NCBI GenBank assembly: GCA_029855935.1
Contig: JAGSHN010000012.1
Location: 272,869-336,868 of the forward strand
Origin: Candidatus Thorarchaeota archaeon
GTDB taxonomy: Archaea > Asgardarchaeota > Thorarchaeia > Thorarchaeales > Thorarchaeaceae
Reading direction: 5' to 3'
DNA length: 64,000 nt
The notes below the pieces were generated by a model. That model searched no databases. It worked only from the letters and a program-made list of their open reading frames with translations, and was not told the origin of the DNA. Both the position numbers and the translations under genes were made by a program. Position 1 is the first letter of the stretch. Every line of letters starts with the position of its first letter. Below, in pieces: positions 5,466-37,712 of this stretch.

Positions 5466-7133
5466 TTGTGGAGAGTCACAAGCATGGAGATCAAACTCGA
5501 ACCAATTCCTCCGCAGCCGCTCTCACACACCTATGGCGGCAAACCCATCTCGAGATATAAGATACAGAGGTACGAACCGCATACCCTGCCCTACACCACT
5601 CAGTCGATATGTCCTGAATGTCTCATGACTGAGGACAGTGTCCACGTGATTGACGCTCTCATCTATGAGGAAGACGGCAAGGTGATGATGAAAAAGACCT
5701 GCGAGAAGCATGGGGAGTTCATCGATGTATATTGGGGCGATGTCGAGATGTGGCGGAGGGCCCAGAAGTACTGGTTCAAGTCAGTGGGCCTCGACAACCC
5801 GCGTACGGAGACCGTCAACGGCTGTCCGAATGACTGCGGGCAGTGTCCCGAGCACAAGTCGCACACAGCACTGGCCCTACTAGATGTCACAAATAGGTGT
5901 AACCTGCGTTGCCCAATCTGTTTCGCCCACGCTGCGGAGTCAGGAACCGTCTATGAGCCGACTCCCGAGGAGGTCATAGAGATGTTGAAGAACCTCCGCA
6001 GCAACCTGCCAGTTCCGGCTCCTGCCATCCAGTTCGCGGGCGGTGAGCCGACCGTGAGCAAGTATCTTCCACAATACATTCGCTGGGCCAAGCAGGTTGG
6101 CTTCCGTCACGTGCAGATTGCAAGCAACGCCATCCGACTTGGTCGGAGCCTGGAGTACACAAGAGAGCTCAGGGAGGCAGGACTATCGACCGTCTACATG
6201 CAGTTTGACGGAGTCACCCCTGAGCCGTATCTTGCAGCCAGAGGCACAAACCTGCTGCCAGTCAAGCTTCAGGCCATCGAGAACTGTCGCCAAGTCGGGC
6301 TTGACTCACTTGTCCTCGTACCCACTGTGGTTCGAGGTGTCAACGATGACCAGCTTGGCAGAATCATCGAGTTTGCTGTGGAGAATCACGATGTCATCAG
6401 ATGTGTCAATTTCCAGCCTGTCAGCATTACTGGTCGAATCGACTATTCGCAGCGTCGTGAGATGAGAATCACAATCCCAGACTGCATCCATCTCATTGAG
6501 GAGCAGACTGGTGGCAAGATTCCCGCATCTGCTTGGTACCCCGTTCCCTCAATGATGCCGGTCGGTCGTGCGATTGGCCTGATGAAAGGCTCCCCGCAGC
6601 TTGAGCTCAGCTCGCACTTTGCCTGCGGGATGTCGACCTTCCTCTGGGTCAACGAAGACGGTACGTACGAGCCGATAACGAACCTGATCAACGTTGACAA
6701 GTTCATCGAGATACTGTCCGACATTGCAGATCTCTTCGCCGAGGGCAAGAGGGCTGCCAGTGCGCGAGCGAAGGCCAAACTGGCGGGTAGCGTGCGGCAC
6801 ATCAAGCGTAAGGGTCTCATCAAGGACCTGTTGAACGCGTTCCTCTCACGCGGCGACTATGACTCGTTGTCGAAGTTTATGGAGCGCGTCATTATGATTG
6901 GTATGATGCACTTTATGGATCCATACAACTTCGACCTCGAACGTGTCCAGCATTGCGACATCAACTACTCGGTGCCGGATGGCAGGATAATCCCATTCTG
7001 CACAATGAACACGATTCACCGTTCGAGAATTGAGAAGAAGTTCGCCGTGACCATAGACGAGTGGCGCGCACGGCACAGACCCGACAAAGTTGAGGAGGAC
7101 AGCATCTCCAACCCATTCCAGGGTGTCGAGTGA
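5466..7133 (+). CDS. Radical SAM enzyme with N-terminal rubredoxin-like Cys module; architecture resembles archaeal tetraether lipid synthase (Tes/GDGT-MAS)
   Basis: 555 aa. N-terminal CPEC...CEKH (Cys3His/Cys4 ribbon). Two CX3CX2C motifs: GCPNDCGQC and CNLRCPIC, the latter followed by a GGEP-type SAM-binding segment (FAGGEPTV). Additional C-terminal cysteines for an auxiliary cluster. Confidence 0.7.
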   Translation: MWRVTSMEIKLEPIPPQPLSHTYGGKPISRYKIQRYEPHTLPYTTQSICPECLMTEDSVHVIDALIYEEDGKVMMKKTCEKHGEFIDVYWGDVEMWRRAQKYWFKSVGLDNPRTETVNGCPNDCGQCPEHKSHTALALLDVTNRCNLRCPICFAHAAESGTVYEPTPEEVIEMLKNLRSNLPVPAPAIQFAGGEPTVSKYLPQYIRWAKQVGFRHVQIASNAIRLGRSLEYTRELREAGLSTVYMQFDGVTPEPYLAARGTNLLPVKLQAIENCRQVGLDSLVLVPTVVRGVNDDQLGRIIEFAVENHDVIRCVNFQPVSITGRIDYSQRREMRITIPDCIHLIEEQTGGKIPASAWYPVPSMMPVGRAIGLMKGSPQLELSSHFACGMSTFLWVNEDGTYEPITNLINVDKFIEILSDIADLFAEGKRAASARAKAKLAGSVRHIKRKGLIKDLLNAFLSRGDYDSLSKFMERVIMIGMMHFMDPYNFDLERVQHCDINYSVPDGRIIPFCTMNTIHRSRIEKKFAVTIDEWRARHRPDKVEEDSISNPFQGVE

Positions 7134-15626: not shown

Positions 15627-15840
15627 GTGACGCGCTCTCTTCATCCCACCCTATCAGCAATATTCAATCGGAAACACATAAAGCAAGGGCACTCCGACCG
15701 AGGACAGGACTGCAAAGGAGTATGAGACTCTGCCGACCAGCCAACTGGAACAACTGCTAGAGAGTGGACACTTCGTCATCACATGCGAGGTCCCCGCACC
15801 ACGCGGATGCAACGTTGACACGTTTCTCTCTCGAGTCCGG

Positions 15841-16665
15841 TTGGTCCAACCCTACTGTCACGCCATCAACGTCACGGACAATGTCGGTGCCACTCCATCG
15901 ATGGACGCACTCGCTGCAGCCCATCTTGTTCTTGATGCGGGTGTCGAGCCCATCCTTCAGATCTCCGGTCGTGACCGCAACAGAATCGCCCTTCAGAGTC
16001 TGCTCTATGGTGCCGCGGCGCTCGGTGTGCGTAACTTGCTATTCATCACTGGCGACTATCCGGATCTCGCCACGCATCCGCACGCGAAGCCTGTCTTCGA
16101 CTACGACTCCGTGGAGGCTCTGAGGATTGCATCGACGCTGATGGGCGGGGTGGACATCAGCGGTGCTGAGATTGATGGCGCACCACAGTTCTTTCTTGGC
16201 TCCACCTTCAATCCCTGCGGCGAGCCGTACGACCTTCACCTCATGCGGCTCAGGATGAAGTATGAGACTGGAGCGCGATTCTTCCAGACTCAGGCAATCT
16301 TTGACATCAAGAGGTTTGCAGACTTCATGACCCATGTTCGTCCGCTTGATGTCTGGGTAATAGCAGGTGCAATGTTTCTCCGCAGCCTGGAGGTGGCTGA
16401 GGCGCTCGCAGCGTTCCCGGGAGTCCGTATCCCCCGGGAGGTCATCTACCGACTTGGAAGGGCAGGTCGGGGCATTGACGACGAGGAGGAGCGACTGGCG
16501 GCCGAGGCCGAGGAGGGGATGCGGATTGCTGTGGAAACCGTCAGAGCGCTGGCAGAAGTCCCAGGTGTCAGTGGCATTCATATCATGAGTGTTGGCTGGG
16601 TAGATGCAATCCCCGATGTCCTCTCGGAGGCCGGCCTCGTGTCCGCGGTGACAAACAGGAGGTGA
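15841..16665 (+). CDS. metF: Methylenetetrahydrofolate reductase (MetF/MTHFR family); conserved N-terminus appears to lie upstream (open frame from 15682) without a canonical start
   Basis: Matches the MetF core (HAINVTDN...ISGRDRNRIALQSLLYGAAALGVRNLLFITGDYP). The in-frame upstream stretch EQLLESGHFVITCEVPAPRG corresponds to the conserved first beta-strand but contains no ATG/GTG/TTG. The TTG at 15841 is the first start-like codon. Confidence 0.75.
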   Translation: MVQPYCHAINVTDNVGATPSMDALAAAHLVLDAGVEPILQISGRDRNRIALQSLLYGAAALGVRNLLFITGDYPDLATHPHAKPVFDYDSVEALRIASTLMGGVDISGAEIDGAPQFFLGSTFNPCGEPYDLHLMRLRMKYETGARFFQTQAIFDIKRFADFMTHVRPLDVWVIAGAMFLRSLEVAEALAAFPGVRIPREVIYRLGRAGRGIDDEEERLAAEAEEGMRIAVETVRALAEVPGVSGIHIMSVGWVDAIPDVLSEAGLVSAVTNRR

Positions 16666-16669
16666 AACG

Positions 16670-17587
16670 GTGTTCATATTTCGGCAGAAGCAGCAAGTCT
16701 TCGACTTTGGCGGGATCCGGATTGGTGGGCAGCCTGGCGAGAACCCGACGGTGCTGATAGGAGGGCTGTTCTTCAAGGGCCAAGAGGTGGTGGAGAACAC
16801 ACGGGAGGGCCGGTTTGACGCCGCCCTAGCTGCTCAGTGGTTGTCGCAGGCGCAGGAGATGTCCGAGAGAACCGGTCATCCCCTGATGATACAGATCTAT
16901 GGACGCACACCCATAGCGATGGAGCGTCATCTCTCGTGGCTGGCCGACAACTTTGATGGACCATTCCTCTTCGAATCAATCAATGCGCGTGCGAGGATCT
17001 ATGGGATAGAGTATTGTGATGAGAGGGGCCTTGTAGACCGCGCGGTCTACAACAGTGTCAATCTCTCTATGACCTCCGAGGAACGTGAAAGACTGTCCGA
17101 GTCGTCCATCGACAAGGCTGTCGTCTTGGGATGGTCCCCTCGGGCGACCTCTCTTGCAGAGCGGATGGAGACAGTCGAGTCAATGGTGAGTGAGGCACGG
17201 CGACTGGGTATGAAAAAGATTCTTGTTGACCCGGGGACGCTCCCGGTCGGGGCTGGCTACGGTCTCGAATACCGTACCGTGCTTGCCATAAAGTCCGAAC
17301 TCGGACTACCCACTAGCCTTGGACCACACAATGCTCCGGCCTCGTGGAGGTTCATCCGTCAGCAGGCCCTAGACACGGAGGTGATCAGGCTGACGACCAG
17401 TGTTGCAGCCACCGTGGTGGCTCAGGTACTGGCCACCGATGCCCTAATGTACGGTTCTCTCGCGAACAGCAGAGCCGTGTTCGCATCTGTGGCACTGGTG
17501 GGAAACGCCATTGCTGCAGCTGCGGCAGAGGCCCACTATGCAGCTGGACTGGACACATCACTCTTTGAACCACCAACATATGACTAG
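16670..17587 (+). CDS. MtrH-like methyltransferase (methyl-tetrahydromethanopterin/tetrahydrofolate:corrinoid methyltransferase, paralog 1)
   Basis: 305 aa; N-terminal MFIFRQKQQVFDFGGIRIGGQPGENPTVLIGGLFF parallels the MtrH consensus MFKFDKEQ.V.DI.GVK.GGQPGE.PTVL.G.IF. Pterin-binding (DHPS-like) fold. Confidence 0.75.
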   Translation: MFIFRQKQQVFDFGGIRIGGQPGENPTVLIGGLFFKGQEVVENTREGRFDAALAAQWLSQAQEMSERTGHPLMIQIYGRTPIAMERHLSWLADNFDGPFLFESINARARIYGIEYCDERGLVDRAVYNSVNLSMTSEERERLSESSIDKAVVLGWSPRATSLAERMETVESMVSEARRLGMKKILVDPGTLPVGAGYGLEYRTVLAIKSELGLPTSLGPHNAPASWRFIRQQALDTEVIRLTTSVAATVVAQVLATDALMYGSLANSRAVFASVALVGNAIAAAAAEAHYAAGLDTSLFEPPTYD

Positions 17588-17592
17588 GAGGA

Positions 17593-18303
17593 ATGCGAGC
17601 ACTCTTGAGCAGAGAATCAGGACCAGAGCGTCAGTGGCCACCCGCCCCCGGAGACTATGAGGTCGGCGATCCACTGCTCCCCGTGGCGATATGTACACTG
17701 GGCAAGAAGATCTCTGTGCCCTCGAAGTATGCCATCATTGGGACCTGCAAGACAGAGAACATAGGTATCGAGAGAGTGATAGTCAACATAGTCTCCAACC
17801 CGAACATTCGCTATCTGATTCTCGCGGGGCCTGAGGTCCCGGGTCACAGAACTGGCTCAACACTGAGGAGCCTGTATGACCACGGTGTCGACCCCCACAC
17901 ACGGAGAGTTCTGAATGCACCCGGTGCGATACCATATGTAGAGAACGTTCCTCTTGAGGCCGTCGAACGCTTCAGGGAGCAGATTGAGCTGGTTGATATG
18001 ATGAACGTGTCAGACCCAGAACGTATCGCTCGACAGGCGGAGGATCTTCTCTCGAGAGGCGCGGAGCCCTTCCCCAAGCCACCCATCTGGGTCGACTTTG
18101 GCCATGCGAAACGGGAGCGTCGCGGCAAACAGCCGAGCGGAGATGTCTGGGTCATCCCGGAATACGGTGTGTCAATCGATCCCGCGACCTCTGTCATAGG
18201 ACGTGGAGCACCGTCTGCGACCGTCCCTGTCGGCAAGGGTCATGTCGTCGTCGAGGTGATCTCCGAAGACGGGGGAACAGTACTCTTCACGAGGGAGGAA
18301 TGA
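17593..18303 (+). CDS. MtrA-like corrinoid-binding protein, soluble (no C-terminal membrane anchor)
   Basis: 236 aa; GDYEVGDP, GTCKTENIGIERVIVNIVSNPNIRYLILAGPEVPGHRTG, GVDPHTRRVLNAPGAIPYVENVPLEAVERFREQ align closely with methanogen MtrA (KTENLGIEKV...NPNIRFL...GH.TGQ...GAPGAIPF.EN...EAVERF). The C-terminus is hydrophilic. Confidence 0.75.
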   Translation: MRALLSRESGPERQWPPAPGDYEVGDPLLPVAICTLGKKISVPSKYAIIGTCKTENIGIERVIVNIVSNPNIRYLILAGPEVPGHRTGSTLRSLYDHGVDPHTRRVLNAPGAIPYVENVPLEAVERFREQIELVDMMNVSDPERIARQAEDLLSRGAEPFPKPPIWVDFGHAKRERRGKQPSGDVWVIPEYGVSIDPATSVIGRGAPSATVPVGKGHVVVEVISEDGGTVLFTREE

Positions 18304-18306
18304 CGG

Positions 18307-19242
18307 TTGTTTCTCTTTGACAAGGAACAGGCAGTGTTTGACGTCAGAGGTGTACGCTTTGGTGGCTCGCCAGGCGAGTTTCCCACGGTTCTCGCAGGGT
18401 CGATATTCTATGATGGTGACAAGATAGTGGAGGATGCCTCCCGAGGAACGTTCGACAGGGCTGCCGCCGAACGATTGATCAGCCTCCAGGATGAGATGTC
18501 GGACACCACGGGGAATCCCTGTGTGGTGCAGATAGTATCCTCTTCTACAGAGGCGATTGAGAGGTATATCGACTTTGTTGCCGATGTCACCGATGCCCCT
18601 ATCATCATCGACTCGACCTCCCATGAGGTACGCATCCGGGGGCTTCGCCATGCTGAGGAGGTGGGCCTGTTCGATGGCGTGATCTACAACTCGCTAAATG
18701 TGTCCATCACGAGGGAGGAGATTGAGGCGCTCTCTGAGATCCCGCCCGAGGCCGCTATTGTTCTTGCCTTCAATCCTCAAGATTCCTCGATGGCCGGTCG
18801 TCGTGCTGTTCTCGAACAGGGCGTCCATCGACTTGAGAGTGGACTGCTCCAGATGGCCGAGCAACTTGGTGTTCAGAAGCCGCTGATCGACACCGCTATC
18901 ACATCAATCGGAGCAGGTGCTGGCTCCTCTGTCGCCTTCATCTTTGTCGCAAAGGCCGCCTACGGCCTGCCCACGGGCGCTGGGATCCACAACGCGCCCG
19001 CATCGTGGCCGTGGTTGATCAGCTATCGCAAGAAGGACCGCGAGGCATTCAAGACCTGTGACGTTTCCTCAAGTCTGATGGTCCAGATGATGGGTGGAGA
19101 CTTTGTTCTATATGGTCCAATCAAGAACGCGCCGCGCGTCTTTCCCGTGGCCGCAATGGGTGATGTCATTGCAGCTGAGATGGCTCAAACGGAGTTGGGA
19201 ATAGAGCCAGCTGAGGGTCATCCTCTGTTTCGGCTCACATAG
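18307..19242 (+). CDS. mtrH: MtrH-like methyltransferase (paralog 2; closest to canonical MtrH)
   Basis: 311 aa; MFLFDKEQAVFDVRGVRFGGSPGEFPTVLAGSIFYDGDKIVEDASRGTFDRAAAERLISLQDEMSDTTGNP is nearly collinear with methanogen MtrH N-termini. Confidence 0.85.
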   Translation: MFLFDKEQAVFDVRGVRFGGSPGEFPTVLAGSIFYDGDKIVEDASRGTFDRAAAERLISLQDEMSDTTGNPCVVQIVSSSTEAIERYIDFVADVTDAPIIIDSTSHEVRIRGLRHAEEVGLFDGVIYNSLNVSITREEIEALSEIPPEAAIVLAFNPQDSSMAGRRAVLEQGVHRLESGLLQMAEQLGVQKPLIDTAITSIGAGAGSSVAFIFVAKAAYGLPTGAGIHNAPASWPWLISYRKKDREAFKTCDVSSSLMVQMMGGDFVLYGPIKNAPRVFPVAAMGDVIAAEMAQTELGIEPAEGHPLFRLT

Positions 19243-19248
19243 GAGGCG

Positions 19249-20682
19249 ATGATTGGCATGCCCTTTCGTTTCATCCGGCCACGCGGTCTGAGCACCGCGT
19301 CCTTGCGAAGGGGACCCTTCTACGTTGTTGCATCTGTGGAGCTGGGTAACACCACGACCAAGTGCATAATCGTGGCCACGGACCTCCGCAATGGCCGGAT
19401 GTACGAGCTCGCCAAGGTGGTACGTCCAACGCGCGACGTCCGTCCCCCAGCACCAGACGAAGAGGTGTTCGGCCGCACAGTGGTCGGTGTTCCTCTCACG
19501 CGAGAGTCTGTCAGCGAGTTCGTCCGTGACGTACTACTTGCAACTGTCGATCGTGCCCGACTCGACCTGTCACACGACCTACACTTTGTCGTCCGTTCAA
19601 CAGGTGTGACTGCAGGATTTGCGCGTCCCGAGGAGGTCGGAGAGATGGTGAAGGCCCTTGCCGACGGGTGCCTCTCTGCTGGTATCTCACCACGCCTGAT
19701 GACCGCCTCGCTGACCCCTGAGAACCTCCCTCCGGGCATCCGGGACTTCACTTGGCTCAGGAAGGTATACTTCGATGGCGCTATCGCAGGTTGTCTGCCG
19801 CCCGCTGACACGGGCGTAGTGGCCAACGAGATGGAGGGCGAGCTCGTCACTGCCGGAATCAAGGGCGCCGCTCGGTCTGCTGGGGTGGACTTCCGCAGCC
19901 CAGTGATCACATTGGACTTCGGAACGACTCTTGCAGGGCGGGTCACAGATGCCTCCCTTCCTTATGCAAAGACCGTGGGTTCTTTTGCGGGTCTTGCTGG
20001 CGCGATTCCCGATGCTCTGGCACGAGGATCCGACCTGGTCGACCCCGAGACTGGTACGGCGCTCGAGCTACCAAGGCCCTCCGGGACCCTAGACGATGGT
20101 ACCAGTGGTATCGAGGAGGATGTGGAACGGGTGCACGGGTTGATCCGCGTGCAGCGGGTGGCCAAAGGCAGAACTCGATTCGGTACGGTCCCTGTTGATC
20201 CCCGTGCTGCAGAGGAGGCTGGACTCGTTCTCGTGGGTGTCGATGTGGGTGACAACGGTTCTGGCCTCGCTGTCCTCACAGAGATTGGTCGCGAGGTCTA
20301 TGACCGTGGCGGTGTCCGCCTCCTGACCCTTCTTATTGACCTCGTACAGGTAGGACTTGTCGAGCGCATCATGAAAGTGGTGGATGCAAGTGGCCTTCTC
20401 CTGAGAGGGACATCACTTGGCCTGACAGGACGTGCCATCCTCACGGGACAGAAGCCACGCCTCTTGGCGCAACGACTGAGGGCACCTGACGGGTCTCTGT
20501 GGGCTGACACCCGTCTCCTTGTTCTTGTCGAGGACGGTCTTGCTATGGGTGCTGGCGTCGCCGCGAGATGTATGAACTCACTCGGGACGCCTAGGAATCC
20601 GATTGGTGGCCGCAGAGGTGACGGCTGCATCATGGCCCAGCGTATGAGGCTACAGGGCGAGAGGCGTGGGAACGGCGGCTGA
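19249..20682 (+). CDS. ASKHA-fold ATPase (hydantoinase/acetate-kinase-like), possibly H4MPT-linked C1-transfer pathway protein or corrinoid-activation ATPase
   Basis: 477 aa; N-terminal phosphate-1 loop VELGNTTTKCII and later glycine-rich DFGTTLAG motifs typical of the actin/hexokinase/Hsp70 (ASKHA) superfamily. No Fe-S cysteine clusters. Located inside the MtrH/MtrA cassette. Confidence 0.4.
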   Translation: MIGMPFRFIRPRGLSTASLRRGPFYVVASVELGNTTTKCIIVATDLRNGRMYELAKVVRPTRDVRPPAPDEEVFGRTVVGVPLTRESVSEFVRDVLLATVDRARLDLSHDLHFVVRSTGVTAGFARPEEVGEMVKALADGCLSAGISPRLMTASLTPENLPPGIRDFTWLRKVYFDGAIAGCLPPADTGVVANEMEGELVTAGIKGAARSAGVDFRSPVITLDFGTTLAGRVTDASLPYAKTVGSFAGLAGAIPDALARGSDLVDPETGTALELPRPSGTLDDGTSGIEEDVERVHGLIRVQRVAKGRTRFGTVPVDPRAAEEAGLVLVGVDVGDNGSGLAVLTEIGREVYDRGGVRLLTLLIDLVQVGLVERIMKVVDASGLLLRGTSLGLTGRAILTGQKPRLLAQRLRAPDGSLWADTRLLVLVEDGLAMGAGVAARCMNSLGTPRNPIGGRRGDGCIMAQRMRLQGERRGNGG

Positions 20683-20716
20683 TGGTCGTCCCCAGGCTGC
20701 GGCGTTCGCAGGCCTT

Positions 20717-21535
20717 ATGAGAATGGTCGTGGCCCTCTCACGCGAGGTATGTGTTCCCTTGCTTGTCATCCCGATAAAGACCCGTATGATCACTCCCGAG
20801 GACGACCTCCTGACGGTGATTGCCGAGGGGATGGAGCATGCTGGCCAAGTCTTTGAGGACCGCGACATCTTGGGGGTGGCCGAGACGCCCCTGGGAACCA
20901 CCGAGGGAAGAGTCGTCAGGCTTGCGGATGTCGAGGTGTCCCCGGAGGCCAAGCGTCTCGCTGATGAGTACGACCTGCTCCCAGAGGTGGCACAGCTCGT
21001 TATGGATGAGGCAGACGAGATCCTTGGTGGTATTCCTCACGTCCTCCTGACGATAAAGAACAACACGCTGATGGCCAATGCGGGTGTCGACAAGTCGAAT
21101 GTGCCACCAGGGTATGCCTCGCTCCTGCCTAAGGACCCACGGGCGAGCGCAGAGCGCATCCGTCGCGAGGTGAGAAGGCGATTCGGGAAAGACGTAGGGG
21201 TCGTAGTCATTGACAGTCGCACTCAACCTCTGCGACTGGGAAACATCGGGATGGCGTTGGGAGTCGCTGGCTTCAGACCCGTCGTTGATGAGAGGGGAAA
21301 GAAGGATCTCTTCGGCAATGTGTTGAGGGTGACGCGGAGGGCTGTGGCAGATAACCTTGCCTCAGCGTGCACACTCGTGATGGGAGAGTCAAGCGAGTCC
21401 GTGCCCGCTGCTCTGGTCAGAGGAGCGCCAGTGGAGTTCGTCGATTCCTCCTTTGACTCTGCCGAGATGTGGATTCCCCCGGACGAGTGCATGTATATGG
21501 CCATCTTCAACAGGTGGAGAAACGCCGAGAGCTAG
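20717..21535 (+). CDS. cofE: CofE-like F420-0:gamma-glutamyl ligase family protein
   Basis: ORF 20666..21535 (likely start MRMVVAL at about 20717). ANAGVDKSNVPPGYASLLPKDP...VGVVVIDSRTQPLRLGNIGMALGVAGF...DERGKKDLFGN...ADNLASACTLVMGESSESVP matches CofE motifs (ANAGIDESN..., IIADTNGR, DDRG.EDL.G). Confidence 0.75.
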   Translation: MRMVVALSREVCVPLLVIPIKTRMITPEDDLLTVIAEGMEHAGQVFEDRDILGVAETPLGTTEGRVVRLADVEVSPEAKRLADEYDLLPEVAQLVMDEADEILGGIPHVLLTIKNNTLMANAGVDKSNVPPGYASLLPKDPRASAERIRREVRRRFGKDVGVVVIDSRTQPLRLGNIGMALGVAGFRPVVDERGKKDLFGNVLRVTRRAVADNLASACTLVMGESSESVPAALVRGAPVEFVDSSFDSAEMWIPPDECMYMAIFNRWRNAES

Positions 21536-21640: not shown

Positions 21641-22990
21641 ATGAGTGAGAGAGTAGTGCTACTGGATGTCAGATCAGCAGGTGCCTCAGGGGACATGTTC
21701 CTCTCCGCGCTCCTTGACCTTCTTGGTGATCAAGAGGCCCTTATGAGAGTGGCTGCCAGTCTGTTGATCTACGACCCCTCCATAAGGGTAAAGGTCGAAG
21801 AGGTTTCGGCAGACGGTCTGAGGGGTCTGCGCGTGGATATTCATACCGACAAAGGAATACGCCTGTCCCCAGAGTCGCTGCGAGAGGTGATAAAGGGAGT
21901 TGCCGACGAGATTCAGCTCTCGGACATTGCCACCAAGTTCTCATATCGTGTTCTTGACAGGCTGCTTGAGGCGGAGTCCAAGGCCCATGGCACGCCAATT
22001 GACCAGCTCCATCTCCATGAAACAGGCTCTGTGGATACTGTCCTTGATATCGTAGGAACCGCCTATCTGCTAGAGCGTTTCGGTCTCCTGGGAAAGGTGC
22101 GCTTCCTCTCCACTCCGGTCGCTGTCGGAGACGGGACAATTGAGACAGAGCACGGCGAGATGGAGGTCCCCGTCCCAGCTGTCGCAGAAATACTGGTCAG
22201 TCACGACGTACCCTACGTCACGGGAGAGGCCACCACCGAGGCCTTGACTCCGACTGGCGCTGCGATTCTCGTCACGCTTGTCGACGAGTTCGTGGAGTCG
22301 ACAGTAGACATCGAGATAGTGAAGGAGGGTGTGGGATTTGGCTCACGTGACCTGGGGAGGGTGCCGAATGTGATGAAGATTGGGATTGGCAATCGTCCCG
22401 AGGCTGCCGAGGCTGCTCCTGTTGCCGACCGCGTAACCACCACGACCCGCGCGAGAGCTCCCACGGCCAAGCCAGTCACAACAACGGGCAAGAAATCCTC
22501 GGCGCCCACGGGGGTGGGCGTCTGGGAGACCGACCAGGTCCTTGTCATAGAGACCACGGTCGACGACGTAGATGGTGAGGCTATCGGGTCAATCTTCGAC
22601 ACGCTGCTCTCCAGTGGTGACGCCTATGACGTCATAATGATACCTGCCTTTGGTAAGAAGAACCGTCCGTGTTATGTCATCAAGGTGTTGGCTCCCGAGT
22701 CCAGCCTTATGACCGTGGCTGAGACCCTTGTCCGGCATCTCGGCTCTCTTGGTGTGCGGTATACTACGTGGGATCGGCTCAAGGCTGTCCGTGAGATAAT
22801 CGTGTGCCGCTTGGAGATAGATGGCAAGGAATACATGGTCCGGGTGAAGGTCTCGCGTTCACCGGATGGCAGCATCATCAATATCAAGCCCGAGGCTGAT
22901 GACCTGATGAAGGTGTCTGCTGAGACTGGTATGCCTGTGCGCGAGCTCAAGCCGCGTGTGGCGCTCCAAGCCTATGCAGTCACCGACTGA
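21641..22990 (+). CDS. larC: LarC-family nickel-pincer cofactor biosynthesis protein (DUF111)
   Basis: 449 aa; N-terminal VVLLDVRSAGASGDMFLSALLDLLGD is the hallmark LarC start (LYLDCFSGISGDM). Thr/Ala-rich linker, then the C-terminal DUF111 domain. Confidence 0.8.
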   Translation: MSERVVLLDVRSAGASGDMFLSALLDLLGDQEALMRVAASLLIYDPSIRVKVEEVSADGLRGLRVDIHTDKGIRLSPESLREVIKGVADEIQLSDIATKFSYRVLDRLLEAESKAHGTPIDQLHLHETGSVDTVLDIVGTAYLLERFGLLGKVRFLSTPVAVGDGTIETEHGEMEVPVPAVAEILVSHDVPYVTGEATTEALTPTGAAILVTLVDEFVESTVDIEIVKEGVGFGSRDLGRVPNVMKIGIGNRPEAAEAAPVADRVTTTTRARAPTAKPVTTTGKKSSAPTGVGVWETDQVLVIETTVDDVDGEAIGSIFDTLLSSGDAYDVIMIPAFGKKNRPCYVIKVLAPESSLMTVAETLVRHLGSLGVRYTTWDRLKAVREIIVCRLEIDGKEYMVRVKVSRSPDGSIINIKPEADDLMKVSAETGMPVRELKPRVALQAYAVTD

Positions 22991-25542: not shown

Positions 25543-25931
25543 CGAGCCTGCCCGCTGTCTGCTCGTTCGCGTCCAGTCTGTGAACGGCCGTCGGCATCCT
25601 CTACCATCGTGTCAGACGGTATCTGTCTTATTGCCACTGGGTGTCTATTCGATATGACATTGTCCTCCTAGACTGATGGCCGAAAGTAAGCAGGCGTGGT
25701 TCGCCTAGTCCCTCTGGGTATACAGGCTGGCGACAGACCCCCAGTACTCAACGGTCCTCGGCCCAGCAAGAATCGGTCTTCTGATGCATCTGGCCTCAAA
25801 AGTGTGGCCCACCAGAGTGCCATACCGCAGGACAAGTTTCTTATTACCCATTCGCACAACACCACAGGACTAGAACGGATGACTGGTAAGCAGTTCTTCC
25901 CGTGCTCACAAATCCGTCTGGTGGTCACGCA

Positions 25932-26498
25932 ATGGTTACGGCACTATTCAAGGTCGTTCTGATGGGCGATGGCTCAGTCGGCAAGACAAGTCTTCGCAGG
26001 GCCTACATGGGCGAGGGATTCCGTGCCTCCTATATGATCACAATCGGGGCAGACTTTGCTGTCAAGAAGATGGTGCTCGAGGGCGGTCACGAGGTCAGCA
26101 TTCAGATCTGGGACCTCGCCGGTCAGGAACACTTCAAGAACGTCCGTTCTACCTTCTACAAGGGCGCCCAGGGGGCCCTTGCTGTCTATTCAACTGTCGA
26201 GCGCTCCTCATTTGAGAACTTGCCCAACTGGATTCAGGAGTGCTGGCATAATGCCGGAAAGAAGATTCCCATTGTTGTCATCGGCAACAAGATTGACCTG
26301 AGACAACAGTTCGAGGGCAATCCTGCCATGCGGCACAACATCGTGACCACGGAGGAGGGTCGAAGGCTCGCAGAGGAGCTGGCCAAACAGGGAGTCCATA
26401 CGTCATTTCTGGAGACATCGGCCAAGACTGGCGAGAACGTCGAGGCAGCATTCCTTGAGCTTGCAATAAAGATTCTTGAGGCTGGTGGGTTGGGATAG
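25932..26498 (+). CDS. Ras-superfamily small GTPase (Rab/Ras-like)
   Basis: ORF 25902..26498; likely start MVTALFKVVLMGDG. G1 GDGSVGKTS, switch I/RabF-like TIGADF, switch II WDLAGQE, G4 GNKIDL, G5 ETSAK. No C-terminal prenylation Cys. Confidence 0.8.
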   Translation: MVTALFKVVLMGDGSVGKTSLRRAYMGEGFRASYMITIGADFAVKKMVLEGGHEVSIQIWDLAGQEHFKNVRSTFYKGAQGALAVYSTVERSSFENLPNWIQECWHNAGKKIPIVVIGNKIDLRQQFEGNPAMRHNIVTTEEGRRLAEELAKQGVHTSFLETSAKTGENVEAAFLELAIKILEAGGLG

Positions 26499-26598: not shown

Positions 26599-27738
26599 AT
26601 GCGACATCTGATGAGTACAGAGGACCTGTCACTATTCCTCAGACCAAAGACGTTGAAGGCTCCGGCAGAACACGGCTCAGAGATCACCCGCAGGCTTGCC
26701 ATAAACAGGGTTGGACGGATGTACGCAGCTGCAATGCAAGACCGCACAATCCGTCTCTTTGATGTTCGGAACGGCGAGGAGGTGCAGGTCTTTGAGGATA
26801 ACTTTCTCTGCACGAGTATCGCATTCAGTCCACATGGTGATATCATTGCCTCTGGCGGTGTCGACCGCGTGATCAAGCTGTGGGACATCAGAACAGGAGA
26901 GCATCTTGCCACTCTTGAGGGTCACAGCTATCCGGTCTTGAGCCTCTCGTTCTCTCCCGATGGTGACAGACTCGTCTCAGGCGGTGGCGATGCCACTCTG
27001 ATGATATGGGATATTGGCAATCGCTCTCAGATCCGACAGCTGAAGGGTCACTCACTCTACGTCGTCACCTGTCAATGGGACCCCAACGGCGGGCGCATAG
27101 TGTCGGGCAGCGTGGACTCCTTCATCGGTGTGTGGGATCCCGATTCGGGCAAGCGTCTTGCTTGGCTACAGGAACATCACACTGCAGTGCACGCCGTCCG
27201 CTTCACGAATGACGGTCAGACGCTTGCGTCTGGCTCATCCGATCAGACAATAAAGATCTGGGACGCCTCGGTGCCGACGCTGAGGCTGAAACAGACGCTC
27301 CGGCGGCACTCTGCCGAGGTACGCTGTCTTGCCTTTTCATCCGATGGCCGCTATCTTGCGTCCGGGTCAAGTGACAGGGAGCTCTATGTCTGGCTCACAG
27401 ATGGGTACGTCAAAGCAGGCGAGGGTTCCACGCTCAGCGAGATTGATGGCATTGAGTGGCTTCCTGAGAGGTCGGCATTTCTCACCGCGGATGGCTCAGG
27501 TGCAGTCATCCGCTGGGAGGTAGAGGATCTCGAAACGGTTCTTGCACCCTTCAAGGCGCTGTTGTCTGAAATCGAGGCCGACACAACGCACTCCCGGCGC
27601 GAGGAGCTAATTCAGAAGTTCGAGACCCTGAAGTCCCAGTACGATCCTGAAGTGCTGCGTGACAAGAGGGTGTTCTATGCTGTCTGGCAATGCAAGAGAG
27701 GTCTTGGACTGCTGAAGGGCACTCCGGCGAGACAGTGA
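26599..27738 (+). CDS. WD40-repeat beta-propeller protein
   Basis: 379 aa with about seven repeats ending in ...WD: ASGGVDRVIKLWD, VSGGGDATLMIWD, VSGSVDSFIGVWD, ASGSSDQTIKIWD, ASGSSDRELYVW. Confidence 0.8.
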   Translation: MRHLMSTEDLSLFLRPKTLKAPAEHGSEITRRLAINRVGRMYAAAMQDRTIRLFDVRNGEEVQVFEDNFLCTSIAFSPHGDIIASGGVDRVIKLWDIRTGEHLATLEGHSYPVLSLSFSPDGDRLVSGGGDATLMIWDIGNRSQIRQLKGHSLYVVTCQWDPNGGRIVSGSVDSFIGVWDPDSGKRLAWLQEHHTAVHAVRFTNDGQTLASGSSDQTIKIWDASVPTLRLKQTLRRHSAEVRCLAFSSDGRYLASGSSDRELYVWLTDGYVKAGEGSTLSEIDGIEWLPERSAFLTADGSGAVIRWEVEDLETVLAPFKALLSEIEADTTHSRREELIQKFETLKSQYDPEVLRDKRVFYAVWQCKRGLGLLKGTPARQ

Positions 27739-27757: not shown

Positions 27758-28435
27758 CTAGAAACTCCTGCCGGAACGCTTCTTGGTCGCGTTGTCTATC
27801 ATGACCTCACACAGCTCAAGGAAGGCCCGTTCGACGTTCTCGCCTGTTAGCGCACTGGACTCGACGTAGAGTGACCCAATCTTGTCAGCGTAGGCCTTGC
27901 CCTCCTCCGTAGAGACCACTCGAATGTCCTCAAGGTCTATCTTGTTGGCAACGACGATCATTGGAATCACTCGGCCTGTGCTGTTGAATGCCTCCTCTCT
28001 CCAGCGGTCAAGATTGAGAAACGTGCGCCTTCTTGTGACATCATAGACCAGGAGGCCTCCCCGTGCGCCCCTATAGAATGACTGCCTGACGACCTCAAAC
28101 CTCTGCTGGCCTGCGAGATCCCATACCTGCAGTGTGACCTTTGCATCTCGACTGGGCACCTGAACTCTTTTGATTGCAAAGTCACTTCCGATGGTCCGCT
28201 TGTAGTCAGACTCGAAATGGTCTTGGGTGAACCTGACCGTCAGCGCAGTCTTTCCCACGGCGCCATCACCGAGCATGACCACTTTGAACCTGTACTCTGC
28301 AGGCACAGGGCTCACATCCTCGTATCGCCATTGTGCTGGCGCCTTAAAACACTTGCCGACTCGTATACCCTCCAATCCGCCTCTGACGGACGGATTTCGG
28401 CGGTTGTGACGTAAGTGTAGGATCGTCTTCCTCAT
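27758..28435 (-). CDS. Ras-superfamily small GTPase (Rab/Ras-like), second copy
   Basis: G1 GDGAVGKTA, TIGSDF, switch II WDLAGQQ, G4 ANKIDL, G5 ESSAL. The ORF's ATG gives a 55-aa N-terminal extension. An in-frame GTG at about 28315 (VSPVPAEYRFKVVMLGDG) would give a canonical-length GTPase. Confidence 0.75.
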   Translation of the reverse strand: MRKTILHLRHNRRNPSVRGGLEGIRVGKCFKAPAQWRYEDVSPVPAEYRFKVVMLGDGAVGKTALTVRFTQDHFESDYKRTIGSDFAIKRVQVPSRDAKVTLQVWDLAGQQRFEVVRQSFYRGARGGLLVYDVTRRRTFLNLDRWREEAFNSTGRVIPMIVVANKIDLEDIRVVSTEEGKAYADKIGSLYVESSALTGENVERAFLELCEVMIDNATKKRSGRSF

Positions 28436-29301: not shown

Positions 29302-30045
29302 ATGAGTCAGTATCAGATTGATAGGGTCAAGACCGGGATACCCGGCCTCGACGAGCTAATAGAGGGTGGATTTCCCCGAGGGGACACCATTCTGATTGCC
29401 GGAAAGGCGGGCACCGGGAAGAGCATTCTCGCCACCCAGTTTCTCTACAGAGGCGCTGTGGACTACAATGAGCCGGGTGTGCTGGTCACCCTGGAGGAGC
29501 CGCCTCGTCTCATCAAGCGGAACATGATGCGGTTCGGAATGGACCTTGACAAGCTCGAGCGCGAGGGGATGCTCTCAATAGTTGATCTCTCGCCCGCACG
29601 GGACACTCCACTGAACATAAGCGAGTATCCGTCATTCGACCTCTCGGGCCTCGAGGCCATCATAATGCATCACATCAAGAAGGTAAATGCCCAGCGTGTT
29701 GTCATCGACACAATCTCCATCCTCGCGTACAAATTCAAGGCGCGGGACATTCTTCGTGAGGAACTGTTCAAACTGTGTGCCCACATCACCAGCACTGGTT
29801 GTACGCTGTTGCTCACAAGCGAGATTCCGGCTCAGGACACTGGCCTTGGCGTCTTTGACATTGAGGCGTTCCTCGCATCGGGCGTCATAGTGCTCTACAA
29901 CGAGAAGATCAGTGACACCTCCCGCTCAAGGTCCATAGAGGTTCTGAAACTGAGGGGCTCGAAACACAGCTCTCGCATTCACTCGATGCGTATTACTGAC
30001 GAGGGGATACGCGTCTGGCCTGGTGAGATTAGTCCCGGAACGTGA
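29302..30045 (+). CDS. KaiC-like / RecA-superfamily ATPase (single domain)
   Basis: 247 aa; TGIPGLDELIEGGFPRGDTILIAGKAGTGKS (Walker A) and VVIDTIS (Walker B), typical of archaeal KaiC/RadA-like signalling ATPases. Confidence 0.7.
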   Translation: MSQYQIDRVKTGIPGLDELIEGGFPRGDTILIAGKAGTGKSILATQFLYRGAVDYNEPGVLVTLEEPPRLIKRNMMRFGMDLDKLEREGMLSIVDLSPARDTPLNISEYPSFDLSGLEAIIMHHIKKVNAQRVVIDTISILAYKFKARDILREELFKLCAHITSTGCTLLLTSEIPAQDTGLGVFDIEAFLASGVIVLYNEKISDTSRSRSIEVLKLRGSKHSSRIHSMRITDEGIRVWPGEISPGT

Positions 30046-30060
30046 TAGGAGGCGAGAGAC

Positions 30061-30780
30061 GTGAGTAGTAGCGACGATCCCGCCGAGGTACCACCGCCGA
30101 CTCTTGCGCGACCGATGCTGGGCGATCTCGTTCAGTTCGGTCAGCTGACACAGGTCTCAATCATGCTTGTCGGCCCTCTGGGGTCAGGCAAGACGACCTA
30201 TGCTGAAGCATTCCTTGCAGAGGGACTGCGTCTGGGCTTTCCGGCGGTCTTCGTCACGACCGATGTGTCACCTCGCGTCATACGCAACGACATGGCCCGT
30301 CACGGATGGCCAGTGGACGAATACGAGAAGGCAGGGCAGTTCGTCTTCATTGACGGCTATTCGGAGAGAATGGGCGCGCCGAGGAGCAGCACTGCTTACT
30401 CACTCTCGAAGGTGGACGACATAACGGAGCTTGGCATAGTCCTGTCGGAGGTGCTCGACGACCTTGTAGTGGCACGGATAGTTGTGGACAGTCTCTCAAC
30501 ACTCATTCTCCACTCCAATCCGGCGACGATGCCGCGGGCCGTGCAGCGTCTGAGTGGACGACTCACTCAGAGCTCCCACAGCATTATGTACATACTTGAA
30601 GAAGGGGTCCACGATGAGAAGACCTACGCCACCTTCTCCTACTTGGCTGACGCTGTCCTGCGCTTCAAGGTGGACGAGTCTGGGCCCGAGCCGAGGCACT
30701 ACGTCCGGATGGAACGGATGCGTGGCACAGAGACCACCCGGGCGTGGATGGAGTTCGTCCTCGAGCGACCAGAAACCTAA
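30061..30780 (+). CDS. KaiC-like / RecA-superfamily ATPase, second paralog
   Basis: 239 aa; Walker A GPLGSGKTT, Walker B IVVDSLS, same fold pattern as the preceding gene. Confidence 0.6.
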   Translation: MSSSDDPAEVPPPTLARPMLGDLVQFGQLTQVSIMLVGPLGSGKTTYAEAFLAEGLRLGFPAVFVTTDVSPRVIRNDMARHGWPVDEYEKAGQFVFIDGYSERMGAPRSSTAYSLSKVDDITELGIVLSEVLDDLVVARIVVDSLSTLILHSNPATMPRAVQRLSGRLTQSSHSIMYILEEGVHDEKTYATFSYLADAVLRFKVDESGPEPRHYVRMERMRGTETTRAWMEFVLERPET

Positions 30781-30809
30781 TAGAGCCAGTCTCCAGTTCC
30801 GGAGTCGAG

Positions 30810-36571: not shown

Positions 36572-37195
36572 TCATACCATTGATGCGCGTTCCCAGTCAT
36601 GCTCGTAGATGTGCGCATTGACAGACAGAGTGGTCACTGTTCCCCTGTCGAGACCCGTTTCTGTTGCAACGCGGCTGAGGAGTTCTCCGAGAGCAAAGAC
36701 GTTTGCTGGCCAGGCCCCGTACATGTCGTTTGACCTAATCATCACACTGAGGTCCACGGCACCATCCCGGACCATGAAGACGAAGTGGTTCAGGCAAGGC
36801 ACCTCGTCGTTTACAGTGTCCCGCCTTGGATCCCAAGTTGTCGCTACCGCCCTCCTGCTATTGGGACTCTGGCTCAACTTCCGAATGACATAGTCAATCT
36901 GGTCTATTGCCTCTTGCCCCCATGACATAAGTCGTTCCCCGTACGTATAATCGAATCCCATCGGGTTGGGGTCCAGTATCTGTGTTGCATACCGCTCGCG
37001 GAGGACACGCTCGCTAAAGGGGTACCCCTCCGGCACTCGTTCGGTGAAGGGGTCTCTGACACAGACCATCAGGTTGTCGAGCCATCGTGTGAGGAGCCCA
37101 CGTTCGTCAACGCGCTCTCTCCCGTGGCCCATGATGTATCTAACAACTCTTTTCCACCCGTCTGCTGGTGTCGCTGCCCTGATAAAGAACGCCAA
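36572..37195 (-). CDS. thyA: Thymidylate synthase (archaeal short ThyA type)
   Basis: 207 aa; NSRRAVATTWDPRRD, catalytic VPCLNHFVF, SVMIRSNDMYGAWPANVFALGELL, VNAHIYEHD align with ThyA motifs ([56 protein letters not shown]). Confidence 0.75.
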   Translation of the reverse strand: MAFFIRAATPADGWKRVVRYIMGHGRERVDERGLLTRWLDNLMVCVRDPFTERVPEGYPFSERVLRERYATQILDPNPMGFDYTYGERLMSWGQEAIDQIDYVIRKLSQSPNSRRAVATTWDPRRDTVNDEVPCLNHFVFMVRDGAVDLSVMIRSNDMYGAWPANVFALGELLSRVATETGLDRGTVTTLSVNAHIYEHDWERASMV

Positions 37196-37429
37196 GACAT
37201 CATCCCTTCTGTCAGCTGCTCTGTTGGAGTCCAGCCCGGTGGCGCCGCTTGGGGGTTAAATAGTTTGGTCAGACAGTCTAGTGCGGCGGTGCCATTGTCC
37301 TGCGGGTACGAGATGTCTTGCGGTAGGTCGATTGTGCATACTCCTTTGGGACAAGATTTTAATGTCGCGGCTACAAAGTGCATCAGGCCCCTCATTGGGG
37401 CAGGGAAGCGTCCGCCGGGAGAGAGAGCG

Positions 37430-37708
37430 ATGACTACCGTAGTATATGTCTTCACTCAAGAGAATTGCCCAAACTGCCCCGCGGCCAAGCGGGTCGTAAG
37501 GGAGGCACTCGACGGCTCTGGAATCGACGTCGAGTTTGTTGACATTCACAGTATGGATTCCGATCTTGAGTTCCGTCTTCTTGAGGAGCAGGTCTTCATT
37601 GCATCAACGCCGAGCATAGTCCTTGAGAATGACGGCTCTCTCCGCCTCCTGTACAGTGGCGAGGTCCCCACTGTAGAAGACATTCGTTCAATAGTAGTAG
37701 GGGAATGA
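37430..37708 (+). CDS. Glutaredoxin-like protein (NrdH-like), upstream of nrdD
   Basis: About 93 aa from ATG at about 37430: MTTVVYVFTQENCPNCPAAKRV... has a CPxC active site with a thioredoxin-fold pattern. Embedded in the longer ORF 37124..37708. Confidence 0.6.
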   Translation: MTTVVYVFTQENCPNCPAAKRVVREALDGSGIDVEFVDIHSMDSDLEFRLLEEQVFIASTPSIVLENDGSLRLLYSGEVPTVEDIRSIVVGE

Positions 37709-37712
37709 TTCT

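Follow-up and report, generated by a model that had tools for sequence, protein, structure and literature searches.

What might two subunits of the methyltransferase complex Mtr, MtrA and MtrH, do in an Asgard archaeon in which they stand apart from the rest of the complex and MtrH is present twice? Mtr catalyses the energy-conserving step of methanogenesis. The question is raised by a cassette of six genes at positions 15682–21535 of a 64 000 nt stretch of Candidatus Thorarchaeota archaeon DNA (assembly GCA_029855935.1, contig JAGSHN010000012.1, positions 272 869–336 868, forward strand), which as a whole is referred to here as the window. The core of this cassette consists of a divergent MtrH paralogue (MtrH1), a soluble MtrA corrinoid protein, a second MtrH (MtrH2) and the predicted ATPase DUF2114, also known as methanogenesis marker 14. 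We propose, at a probability that we put at roughly 45 %, that the cassette is a soluble, membrane-free derivative of Mtr, in which a self-tethered MtrA would shuttle methyl groups between two MtrH active sites, one serving methyl-tetrahydromethanopterin (CH3-H4MPT) and the other a second pterin, probably tetrahydrofolate (H4F), with DUF2114 acting as an ATP-dependent maintenance factor. Previous work (Adam et al. 2022, PMC9635834) reported that Thorarchaeia keep canonical MtrAH and DUF2114 but none of the other subunits of Mtr. The core gene set is therefore already published, and what is new in our study is the putative MtrB-like tether on MtrA, the specialised pair of MtrH proteins and the four-gene core as a functional unit.

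The argument starts from MtrA. The 236 aa open reading frame (ORF) at 17593–18303 on the forward strand, for which the public gene call begins four codons later (232 aa), matches the MtrA family PF04208 with 174 bits and is thus related to MtrA, as an earlier note on this DNA had claimed. It is laid out as a cobamide-binding domain (residues 1 to ~165), a linker and a C-terminal beta module specific to Thorarchaeia. Identity to canonical MtrA is 42–50 % over residues ~4–180, and residues 9–179 align with Methanothermobacter marburgensis MtrA, including the GH motif (match to the solved MtrA, E 8e-45). An AlphaFold model of residues 1–165 superposes on structures 5laa, 5l8x and 9qtr, among them a cobalamin-bound crystal structure, with target template-modelling scores (TM-scores) of 0.86–0.91. 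The histidine of the GH motif, His85 (codon 17845–17847 on the forward strand, translation PGHR), is the predicted lower axial ligand of the cobalt; it aligns with the histidine of M. marburgensis MtrA (8q3v_A), where the corresponding ligand is called His84 (PMC10998594), and is invariant in 52 relatives. The motif is therefore kept, as had been noted, and profile score, ligand and superposition together identify an MtrA cobamide domain with a histidine lower ligand.

The membrane anchor of canonical MtrA is missing. This was examined by hydropathy (Kyte–Doolittle maximum over 19 residues within the last 60 aa) and in a conservation scan that took one genome per species and yielded 80 loci, with gene order mapped by tblastn. 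About 74 of these loci were of the thorarchaeial type, with full-length MtrA matches that include the C-terminal extension, while 11 were canonical Mtr loci (Archaeoglobales, Bathyarchaeia, Methanobacteriota and Methanomethylicia) that match residues ~4–180 only. The hydropathy maximum is 0.88 in the MtrA studied here and 0.5–1.9 in its thorarchaeial relatives (two of them at 1.78 and 1.88), compared to 1.85–2.76 in the 11 canonical MtrA proteins, where it falls at residues 219–235 in a hydrophobic C-terminal helix. No C-terminal transmembrane helix was found by hydropathy in ~70 thorarchaeial species, in agreement with the earlier claim. The other subunits are missing too. Pfam scans, supplemented for mtr by tblastn with the ORFs of canonical mtr operons, found no mtrB–G, mcr, mer or mtd in the 64 kb window, and the eight-subunit mtrEDCBAFGH operon is represented by A- and H-type genes only, both in the window and in ~70 thorarchaeial loci. 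With MtrA unanchored, Na+ would not be expected to be pumped, nor would MtrCDE offer a site at which coenzyme M is methylated. Together with the absence of the other subunits from the window and, according to PMC9635834, from Thorarchaeia, the helix-free MtrA favours the earlier suggestion of soluble corrinoid methyl transfer over a Na+-pumping Mtr, as far as comparison of sequences can indicate.

The statement that mtrB–G are absent nearby has to be qualified in one respect, as the C-terminus of MtrA includes a short stretch that resembles MtrB. In place of the helix, thorarchaeial MtrA carries a conserved, beta-rich extension of ~55 residues (v.lLPEygv.ldp.sSlv...hPs...iEv....GTiL.gkE), which AlphaFold modelled as five short strands at a predicted local distance difference test score (pLDDT) of 56–77. 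In the control tblastn search with ORFs of canonical operons, residues 10–26 of a Methanobacteriaceae MtrB matched the window at 18151–18201, inside mtrA (17 aa, E 0.005). A hidden Markov model (HMM) built from 68 thorarchaeial C-termini gave MtrB proteins the two highest ranks in a set of 902 ORFs. Against a test set of 8195 sequences, made up of 8075 six-frame decoy ORFs and 120 MtrB proteins, 97 of the 101 non-self matches of this HMM at E ≤ 1 were the added MtrB proteins, and at least one further match was the MtrB ORF of locus L083. MtrB was also the sole family to match the thorarchaeial C-terminus in Pfam (E 0.005 and 0.011) and NCBIfam, always at profile positions 2–40, and hhalign paired MtrA residues 176–202 with MtrB residues 4–30 (E 6.3e-4, probability 28 %). 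The two consensus sequences read lLPEygv.ldp.sS in Thorarchaeia and ivPE.NLtLDPstG in MtrB; Pro189 and Glu190 of MtrA are invariant, and MtrB Glu9 aligns with the glutamate of the PE motif, that is, with Glu190. The extension is not a member of the MtrB family PF05440, as its best fragment reaches 17.8 bits, under the gathering score of 27, and it has no transmembrane helix.

In the Methanosarcina mazei Mtr complex, residues 1–23 of MtrB form a sheet that docks the MtrH homodimer at the dimer interface, with salt bridges between Glu9 of MtrB and Arg211 of MtrH and between Arg5 of MtrB and Asp5 of MtrH (PMC12774963). The motif in MtrA (PSGDVWVIPEYGVSIDPATSVIGRGAP, 18133–18213 on the forward strand) is accordingly a predicted docking strand for an MtrH dimer, and we consider it probable, on the strength of these alignments, that it is either homologous to the MtrB N-terminus or a functional mimic of it. 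There is a precedent for the shuffling of C-terminal domains in MtrA, namely mtrA-2.

If MtrA carries a docking strand, the two MtrH proteins that bracket it become its likely partners. MtrH2 (18307–19242, forward strand) is the canonical orthologue, a CH3-H4MPT:cob(I)amide methyltransferase by homology. It matches PF02007 with 385 bits and exceeds the equivalog cutoff of TIGR01114 (394 versus 271), shares 46–52 % identity with canonical MtrH and has all four of the pterin contacts described for M. marburgensis MtrH (D102, N128, D195 and N229; Aziz et al.), at identical numbering. MtrH1 (16670–17587, forward strand) is a divergent pterin-binding TIM-barrel methyltransferase specific to Thorarchaeia, 39 % identical to MtrH2; it passes Pfam (PF02007, 237 bits) and stays below the TIGR01114 cutoff (233 versus 271), and is thus a member of the family, not an equivalog. 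A rough neighbour-joining tree places MtrH2 inside canonical MtrH, beside Bathyarchaeia and Methanomethylicia, and MtrH1 in a separate, long-branched clade outside all canonical MtrH. No MtrH1 equivalent was found when the 11 canonical Mtr loci were mapped by tblastn. Mean identity within the clade is 66.6 % for MtrH1 and likewise 66.6 % for MtrH2, which argues that MtrH1 is not decaying.

A total of 12 fixed differences separate the two paralogues. Position 102 is glutamate in all 66 MtrH1 sequences (D102E), with N128, D195, N229 and H228 invariant, and the loop at 154–156 that contacts MtrA has changed from LAFNP to LGWSP (A154G/F155W/N156S). The residues that would contact MtrB are also distributed unevenly. 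At position 210, which corresponds to Arg211 of M. mazei, MtrH1 has arginine in 66/66 sequences, whereas MtrH2 has alanine, serine or glycine in 67/67 and never a basic residue; canonical MtrH has lysine or arginine in 8 of 11. Position 5 is lysine or arginine in every MtrH1 (66/66), compared to glutamate, aspartate or glutamine in every MtrH2 (67/67). Such a division of contact residues is what would be expected if a symmetric homodimer had become an asymmetric heterodimer on one docking strand. The earlier proposal that the paralogues serve different partners is strengthened by the separate and equally conserved MtrH1 clade and by fixed changes at one pterin contact and in the MtrA-contact loop, and falls short of proof. 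With the tetrahydrofolate-linked methyltransferase MtgA, MtrH1 has D195–P196 and Ser156 in common. A solved 344 aa protein labelled MtrH (PDB 8z9u, chain B) is nearer to both thorarchaeial paralogues than MtgA is.

The fourth core gene (19249–20682, forward strand) encodes methanogenesis marker 14 (DUF2114, m26, arCOG04866), as indicated by PF09887 (600 bits), by TIGR03285 (584 versus a cutoff of 274) and by its linkage to mtr genes. The actin-like ASKHA fold ascribed to it in the earlier note is borne out by an AlphaFold model (pLDDT 93.7) for which Foldseek gave as neighbours Kae1/Qri7, sugar and acetate kinases, Hsp70 and, at ranks 6–12, RACo (3zyy and 4c1n); as all TM-scores are only 0.3–0.4, no specific affinity follows. 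Three glycine-rich loops, SVE(L/V)GNTTTKC, DFGTTLAGR and GxTGRA, are conserved and would correspond to the phosphate- and adenosine-binding motifs of ASKHA proteins, and four cysteines (C39, C141, C441 and C460) are conserved as well. The family is very small, at 130 clusters among 1.84 billion representatives. Five members of the representative library, among others (P0287, P0291, P0297, P0303 and P0313), are proteins of ~390–410 aa whose match to DUF2114, at 25–32 % identity, is confined to the C-terminal two thirds of the latter; this subfamily may represent the divergent ‘twilight’ homologues that have been mentioned for Persephonarchaea.

DUF2114 always directly follows MtrH2 in the thorarchaeial loci, and in canonical loci it lies directly after mtrH (L077, L081 and L082) or within a few kb. 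Its distribution, phylogeny and synteny tie m26 (DUF2114, arCOG04866, MMP1223) to Mtr, the Thorarchaeia clade included (Adam et al. 2022, PMC9635834), and arCOG04866 had already been linked to Mtr in methanogens (Borrel et al. 2014); the original ‘methanogens only’ distribution of marker 14 no longer holds, according to published work. Because DUF2114 persists in Thorarchaeia with MtrA and MtrH alone, its client should be MtrA or MtrH and not the membrane part of the complex. The literature searched assigns no function to DUF2114 and names no Mtr activase. A role as an ATP-dependent reactivation or cofactor-handling factor is the most economical guess, which we hold tentatively and at slightly under even odds. 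The earlier note had named this gene as a candidate reductive activator or H4MPT-linked C1 protein; the candidate activator has now become a marker protein with a literature link to Mtr, and the label of a C1 protein is unsupported.

The extent of the unit was judged from gene order. The six genes of the cassette follow one another at 4, 5, 3 and 6 nt and end in a 17 nt overlap between DUF2114 and the CofE-like gene; their coordinates, strand and tight spacing were as previously described, and profile searches upheld every identification. The order MetF–MtrH1–MtrA–MtrH2–DUF2114–CofE–LarC recurs by tblastn in nearly every thorarchaeial locus of sufficient length, and MtrH1–MtrA–MtrH2–DUF2114 is unbroken in every one of them (~70 species). 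The four core proteins are 50–70 % identical across Thorarchaeia, with active-site and motif residues kept throughout the class, and for MtrA as for DUF2114 the best homologues all carry the annotation Thorarchaeota. The flanking TGT, HflX and PolB genes are, however, conserved to the same degree as the cassette, and thorarchaeial genomes are syntenic genome-wide (PMC6737245), so that a conserved neighbourhood by itself proves little. The exceptions are more informative. L012 lacks MetF and has the four core genes inverted as a block with respect to TGT/HflX and CofE/LarC/PolB; MetF is also missing from the locus in L064, a complete chromosome (CP070761); and in L061, 2.5 kb are inserted between DUF2114 and CofE. 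These cases point to the four-gene core as the functional unit, with MetF as a frequent partner and CofE and LarC as doubtful members. The one-operon suggestion therefore stands as regards tight spacing on one strand, with the reservation that CofE can be separated from the core (L012 and L061) and is of doubtful membership.

The MetF-like gene, of the MTHFR family, occupies an open frame at 15682–16665 (forward strand), 4 nt from MtrH1. It matches PF02219 with 88 bits and stays below the cutoff of every NCBIfam equivalog. It is present in nearly all thorarchaeial loci that cover the position. No ATG, GTG or TTG occurs in its frame between 15682 and 15841, where TTG is the first canonical start, and the conserved MetF N-terminus (FVITCEVPAPRG) lies upstream of 15841. 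Judged from the sequence, the real start is probably CTG at 15730, with AAGGAG 9 nt upstream, or CTG at 15754; orthologues begin with methionine at or before the position of the latter, many of them exactly there. The gene may have a non-canonical start, unless a point mutation or an error in sequencing is responsible. No MetV partner was found anywhere in the 64 kb window, in which HflX is directly followed by MetF. In 21 other thorarchaeial loci (L002, L005 and 19 more), HflX and MetF are separated by a MetV-like gene (PF12225/DUF5981, Cys-rich, 220 aa), and in several of these additionally by one or two SBP_bac_5 genes. Thorarchaeota have been reported to possess Wood–Ljungdahl genes of both the H4MPT and the H4F type (PMC6737245).

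Taken together, these features suggest the following mechanism. The MtrA C-terminus would be a copy of the N-terminal MtrB strand that docks the MtrH dimer in methanogens and, because it carries this strand, MtrA would be tethered through a linker of ~18 residues to a dimer of MtrH, for which a heterodimer of MtrH1 and MtrH2 is the likeliest form. The cobamide domain could then swing between the two TIM barrels. MtrH2 would load Co(I) from CH3-H4MPT. With MtrCDE missing, the site of the pump's second half-reaction is gone, and MtrH1 is the only candidate for it within the unit; it would perform the half-reaction of MtrCDE toward a second pterin, probably H4F, and the reverse direction is possible. 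H4F is suggested by the position of MetF, 4 nt upstream of MtrH1, by the Wood–Ljungdahl genes for both pterins reported from Thorarchaeota and by the residues that MtrH1 has in common with MtgA. The adjacent MetF-like enzyme would interconvert methyl-H4F and methylene-H4F, so that the module might connect the one-carbon pools of H4MPT and H4F through their methyl forms, and DUF2114 would spend ATP to keep MtrA active, by reactivation of Co(II) or by loading or repair of the cobamide. The literature searched contained no pterin-to-pterin corrinoid methyltransferase, and to our knowledge none of this kind is known. A stricter version of the proposal is a minimal Mtr, in which MtrH1 and MtrH2 would form an obligate heterodimer with MtrA as its swinging arm, methyl groups would pass directly between H4MPT and H4F, and DUF2114, which occurs in nearly all Mtr-containing methanogens, would serve the cobamide of MtrA as an ATP-dependent activase or chaperone; in this complete form we regard it as unlikely.

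Several observations weigh against the two-pterin shuttle. The similarity to MtrB is short (~20–27 residues) and below family thresholds (17.8 versus 27 bits; hhalign probability 28 %), and the 120 MtrB test sequences are kin to one another and not independent. The heterodimer and the tether are predictions from the comparison of sequences. The modelled fold of DUF2114 matches RACo (TM-score ~0.3) no better than it matches kinases; the protein has no ferredoxin domain, as no second Pfam domain was detected, and no sequence relative in the PDB, even by profile. MtrH1 is less like MtgA overall than MtrH2 is (147 versus 184 bits), and MtgA has aspartate, not glutamate, at position 102, which makes the assignment to H4F weak. 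The MetF type of Asgard archaea and anaerobic methanotrophic archaea (ANME-1) has been proposed to act on H4MPT (PMC9012536), which counts against H4F as well; MetF itself is missing from L012 and L064 and has no canonical start in this metagenome-assembled genome. Genome-wide synteny among Thorarchaeia further weakens arguments from neighbours outside the four-gene core.

Other explanations account for parts of this evidence. The MtrH reaction is, like those of corrinoid methyltransferases, reversible in principle, and methyl groups might thus enter the cassette from methylotrophic substrates, placed on MtrA by substrate methyltransferases encoded elsewhere and passed by MtrH to H4MPT and the Wood–Ljungdahl pathway. 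MtrAH outside methanogens has been hypothesised to feed methyl groups into this pathway (PMC9635834), and MtrH lies beside MttB-like genes in other Asgard lineages (PMC11291895). However, no gene of the MttB, MtaB, MtgB or MtoB type was found next to the cassette, either in the window or in the thorarchaeial loci examined, the cassette instead holds two pterin-type methyltransferases, and the need for MtrH1 would go unexplained; we see little prospect of this route being the right one. We think just as poorly of the chances of a role in biosynthesis, in which MtrA, methylated by MtrH2 from CH3-H4MPT, would donate to a non-pterin acceptor elsewhere, such as a MesA-type core methionine synthase, and MtrH1 would be a non-catalytic structural holder. 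MtrA is the predicted methyl donor of MesA in methanogens (Price et al., PMC7857596), and a scaffold would fit with MtrH1 alone of the two paralogues keeping the arginine that pairs with the docking glutamate and with D102E, which could impair pterin binding. Nevertheless, MesA has been found in methanogens only (Price et al., PMC7857596), neither the window nor any of the ~70 loci holds a Meth_synt_2 gene, and a pure scaffold would have no need of N128, D195, N229 and H228, which are invariant in MtrH1 over ~66 species.

A related reading, to which we give a similarly small weight, keeps the asymmetric dimer and dispenses with the second pterin. Both MtrH proteins would use H4MPT, MetF would substitute for Mer, and the homodimer would have split into a docking and a catalytic subunit, leaving the acceptor of the methyl group on MtrA unspecified. 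This agrees with the view that in the canonical homodimer the membrane-proximal MtrH monomer alone serves MtrA (PMC12774963), with the complementary split of docking contacts between the paralogues and with the proposed H4MPT use of the ANME-1/Asgard-type MetF (PMC9012536). It provides no second half-reaction, though, for four genes that are inherited as a self-contained unit, and it sits uneasily with an MtrH1 whose active-site residues are still conserved and whose corrinoid-contact loop has changed in a fixed manner and has not degraded. Finally, the view taken here is limited to 64 kb of the genome and no canonical start codon precedes the conserved part of MetF, so one might think of a full Mtr pump with its other subunits elsewhere in the genome, or of a functionless relic in decay. 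Both are highly improbable: MtrA has no transmembrane helix in ~70 species, the other Mtr subunits were reported to be missing from Thorarchaeia (PMC9635834), and the four core proteins remain 50–70 % identical with their active-site and motif residues retained. The decaying relic was rejected because this conservation is class-wide.

The two-pterin shuttle would differ from each of the known systems to which it can be compared. Thorarchaeial MtrA and MtrH2 are orthologous to the subunits of the MtrABCDEFGH complex of methanogens and ANME (42–50 % and 46–52 % identity) and share with it the histidine ligand, the four pterin contacts of MtrH2, the neighbouring DUF2114 and, as we propose, a docking motif derived from MtrB. 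The thorarchaeial cassette differs in lacking MtrC, D, E, F and G and the transmembrane part of MtrB, in having an extra MtrH paralogue and in carrying the putative docking strand on MtrA rather than on MtrB. MtrA homologues without a transmembrane helix (groups II–IV, including MtxA) have been described (PMC4632066). Among these, MtxXAH of the Methanosarcinales likewise places such a protein, a group II MtrA, beside an MtrH homologue, and methyl transfer to H4MPT was suggested for it (Harms and Thauer 1997, as cited in PMC4632066). The thorarchaeial cassette differs from MtxXAH in its two MtrH genes and DUF2114, and no mtxX (methanogenesis marker 4) was found in the cassette or in the 64 kb window. 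Thorarchaeial MtrA groups with canonical (group I) MtrA (PMC9635834) and scores below the cutoff of the MtxA-type model NF010654 (151 versus 279). The alignment to this model extends to residue 202 of thorarchaeial MtrA, and a C-terminal motif in common was considered; isolated C-terminal fragments do not match the model, however, and this lead was dropped.

The methylcorrinoid:tetrahydrofolate system MtgABC of Desulfitobacterium is similar in that a dimeric TIM barrel of the MtrH family moves methyl groups between a corrinoid protein and a pterin, and MtrH1 resembles MtgA in the D-P motif after the pterin aspartate and in Ser156. It is dissimilar in that the thorarchaeial corrinoid protein is of the MtrA type, not the MtgC/B12-binding-domain type, in that there is no substrate-specific first methyltransferase (MtgB), and in that the thorarchaeial paralogues score 169 and 217 with the MtgA model, far under its cutoff of 550. 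Atabeyarchaeia and Freyarchaeia, which likewise belong to the Asgard archaea and lack Mcr, have retained soluble homologues of MtrA and MtrH (PMC11291895). Theirs, however, are divergent ‘MtrA-like’ proteins and covalent MtrA–MtrH fusions next to MttB-like genes, whereas Thorarchaeia have separate proteins of the canonical type, a putative docking peptide, two MtrH paralogues and DUF2114. The RACE proteins RACo and RamA, which activate corrinoid enzymes by ATP-dependent reduction, parallel DUF2114 in their ASKHA ATPase fold and their linkage to corrinoid methyltransferases, and RACo is among the fold neighbours of the DUF2114 model. DUF2114 differs from them in having no detectable sequence homology to them and no ferredoxin-type Fe–S domain, only four conserved cysteines.

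Downstream of the core, the CofE-family gamma-glutamyl ligase (20666–21535, forward strand; TIGR01916, 205 versus a cutoff of 180.65) overlaps DUF2114 by 17 nt here, and its orthologues align from residue ~30 only. The gene for a LarC-like nickel-insertion protein (21641–22990, forward strand; PF01969, 326 bits) follows after a gap of 105 nt and in L012 stays together with CofE and PolB, apart from the core; its proximity is probably synteny of the flank. Neither the cassette and its surroundings nor the rest of the window contained an Rfam family or notable direct or inverted repeats. ORFs antisense to the cassette (e.g. 16039–16800 and 19320–19946) were, in view of the profile-supported genes on the other strand, taken to be GC-rich shadow frames.

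Elsewhere in the window, the gene at 5466–7133 (forward strand), ~10 kb upstream of the cassette, encodes the tetraether (GDGT) lipid synthase Tes (NF045702, 647 bits versus a cutoff of 450); a methanopterin methylase, suggested by the name of its Pfam zinc ribbon (HMPTM), was discarded in favour of the NCBIfam assignment. Two genes for Arf/Ras-family GTPases, at 25902–26498 (forward strand) and 27758–28435 (reverse strand), flank a WD40 beta-propeller gene at 26599–27738. The first of these GTPases also follows PolB in L002–L005, and the trio was seen in L001, which is the source scaffold; as a set of ‘eukaryotic signature’ genes it is typical of Asgard archaea and fits an Asgard genome. Two tandem genes for KaiC-like ATPases and an overlapping 795 aa ORF with no Pfam match occupy 29302–33131 (forward strand). 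At 36572–39857, a short thymidylate synthase of the methanogen type (TIGR03283, 219 bits versus 174.6) is transcribed divergently from the anaerobic ribonucleotide reductase NrdD, and an NrdG-like activase just under the TIGR02495 cutoff (126.4 versus 131.15 bits) lies 9 kb from this pair, at 49131–49826. A RimK-family ATP-grasp ligase at 50774–51661 (reverse strand), whose best specific model is the tetrahydromethanopterin:alpha-L-glutamate ligase MptN (238 bits, under the cutoff of 350), might modify a pterin or F420 tail. The gene at 58937–62839 (forward strand) encodes a 1300 aa protein of unusual architecture, with an N-terminal TrmB/MarR-type helix-turn-helix followed by long, apolipoprotein-like helical repeats.

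In summary, a soluble four-gene version of Mtr that keeps marker 14 without the membrane subunits narrows the client of this protein to MtrA or MtrH. The thorarchaeial cassette could be expressed and reconstituted free of membranes, which would bear on how the Mtr cobamide is maintained as, or restored to, active Co(I) and on the role of marker 14, and the module may explain how Thorarchaeia join the H4MPT and H4F branches of one-carbon metabolism. If our reading is true, the MtrB motif on MtrA and the split docking residues would be direct molecular evidence that ancestors of Thorarchaeia possessed a full Mtr complex, and would also show how a membrane machine is reduced to a soluble enzyme. 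The anatomy of the cassette turns an MtrAH remnant into a concrete and testable mechanism, and does likewise for the marker 14 ATPase of methanogens.

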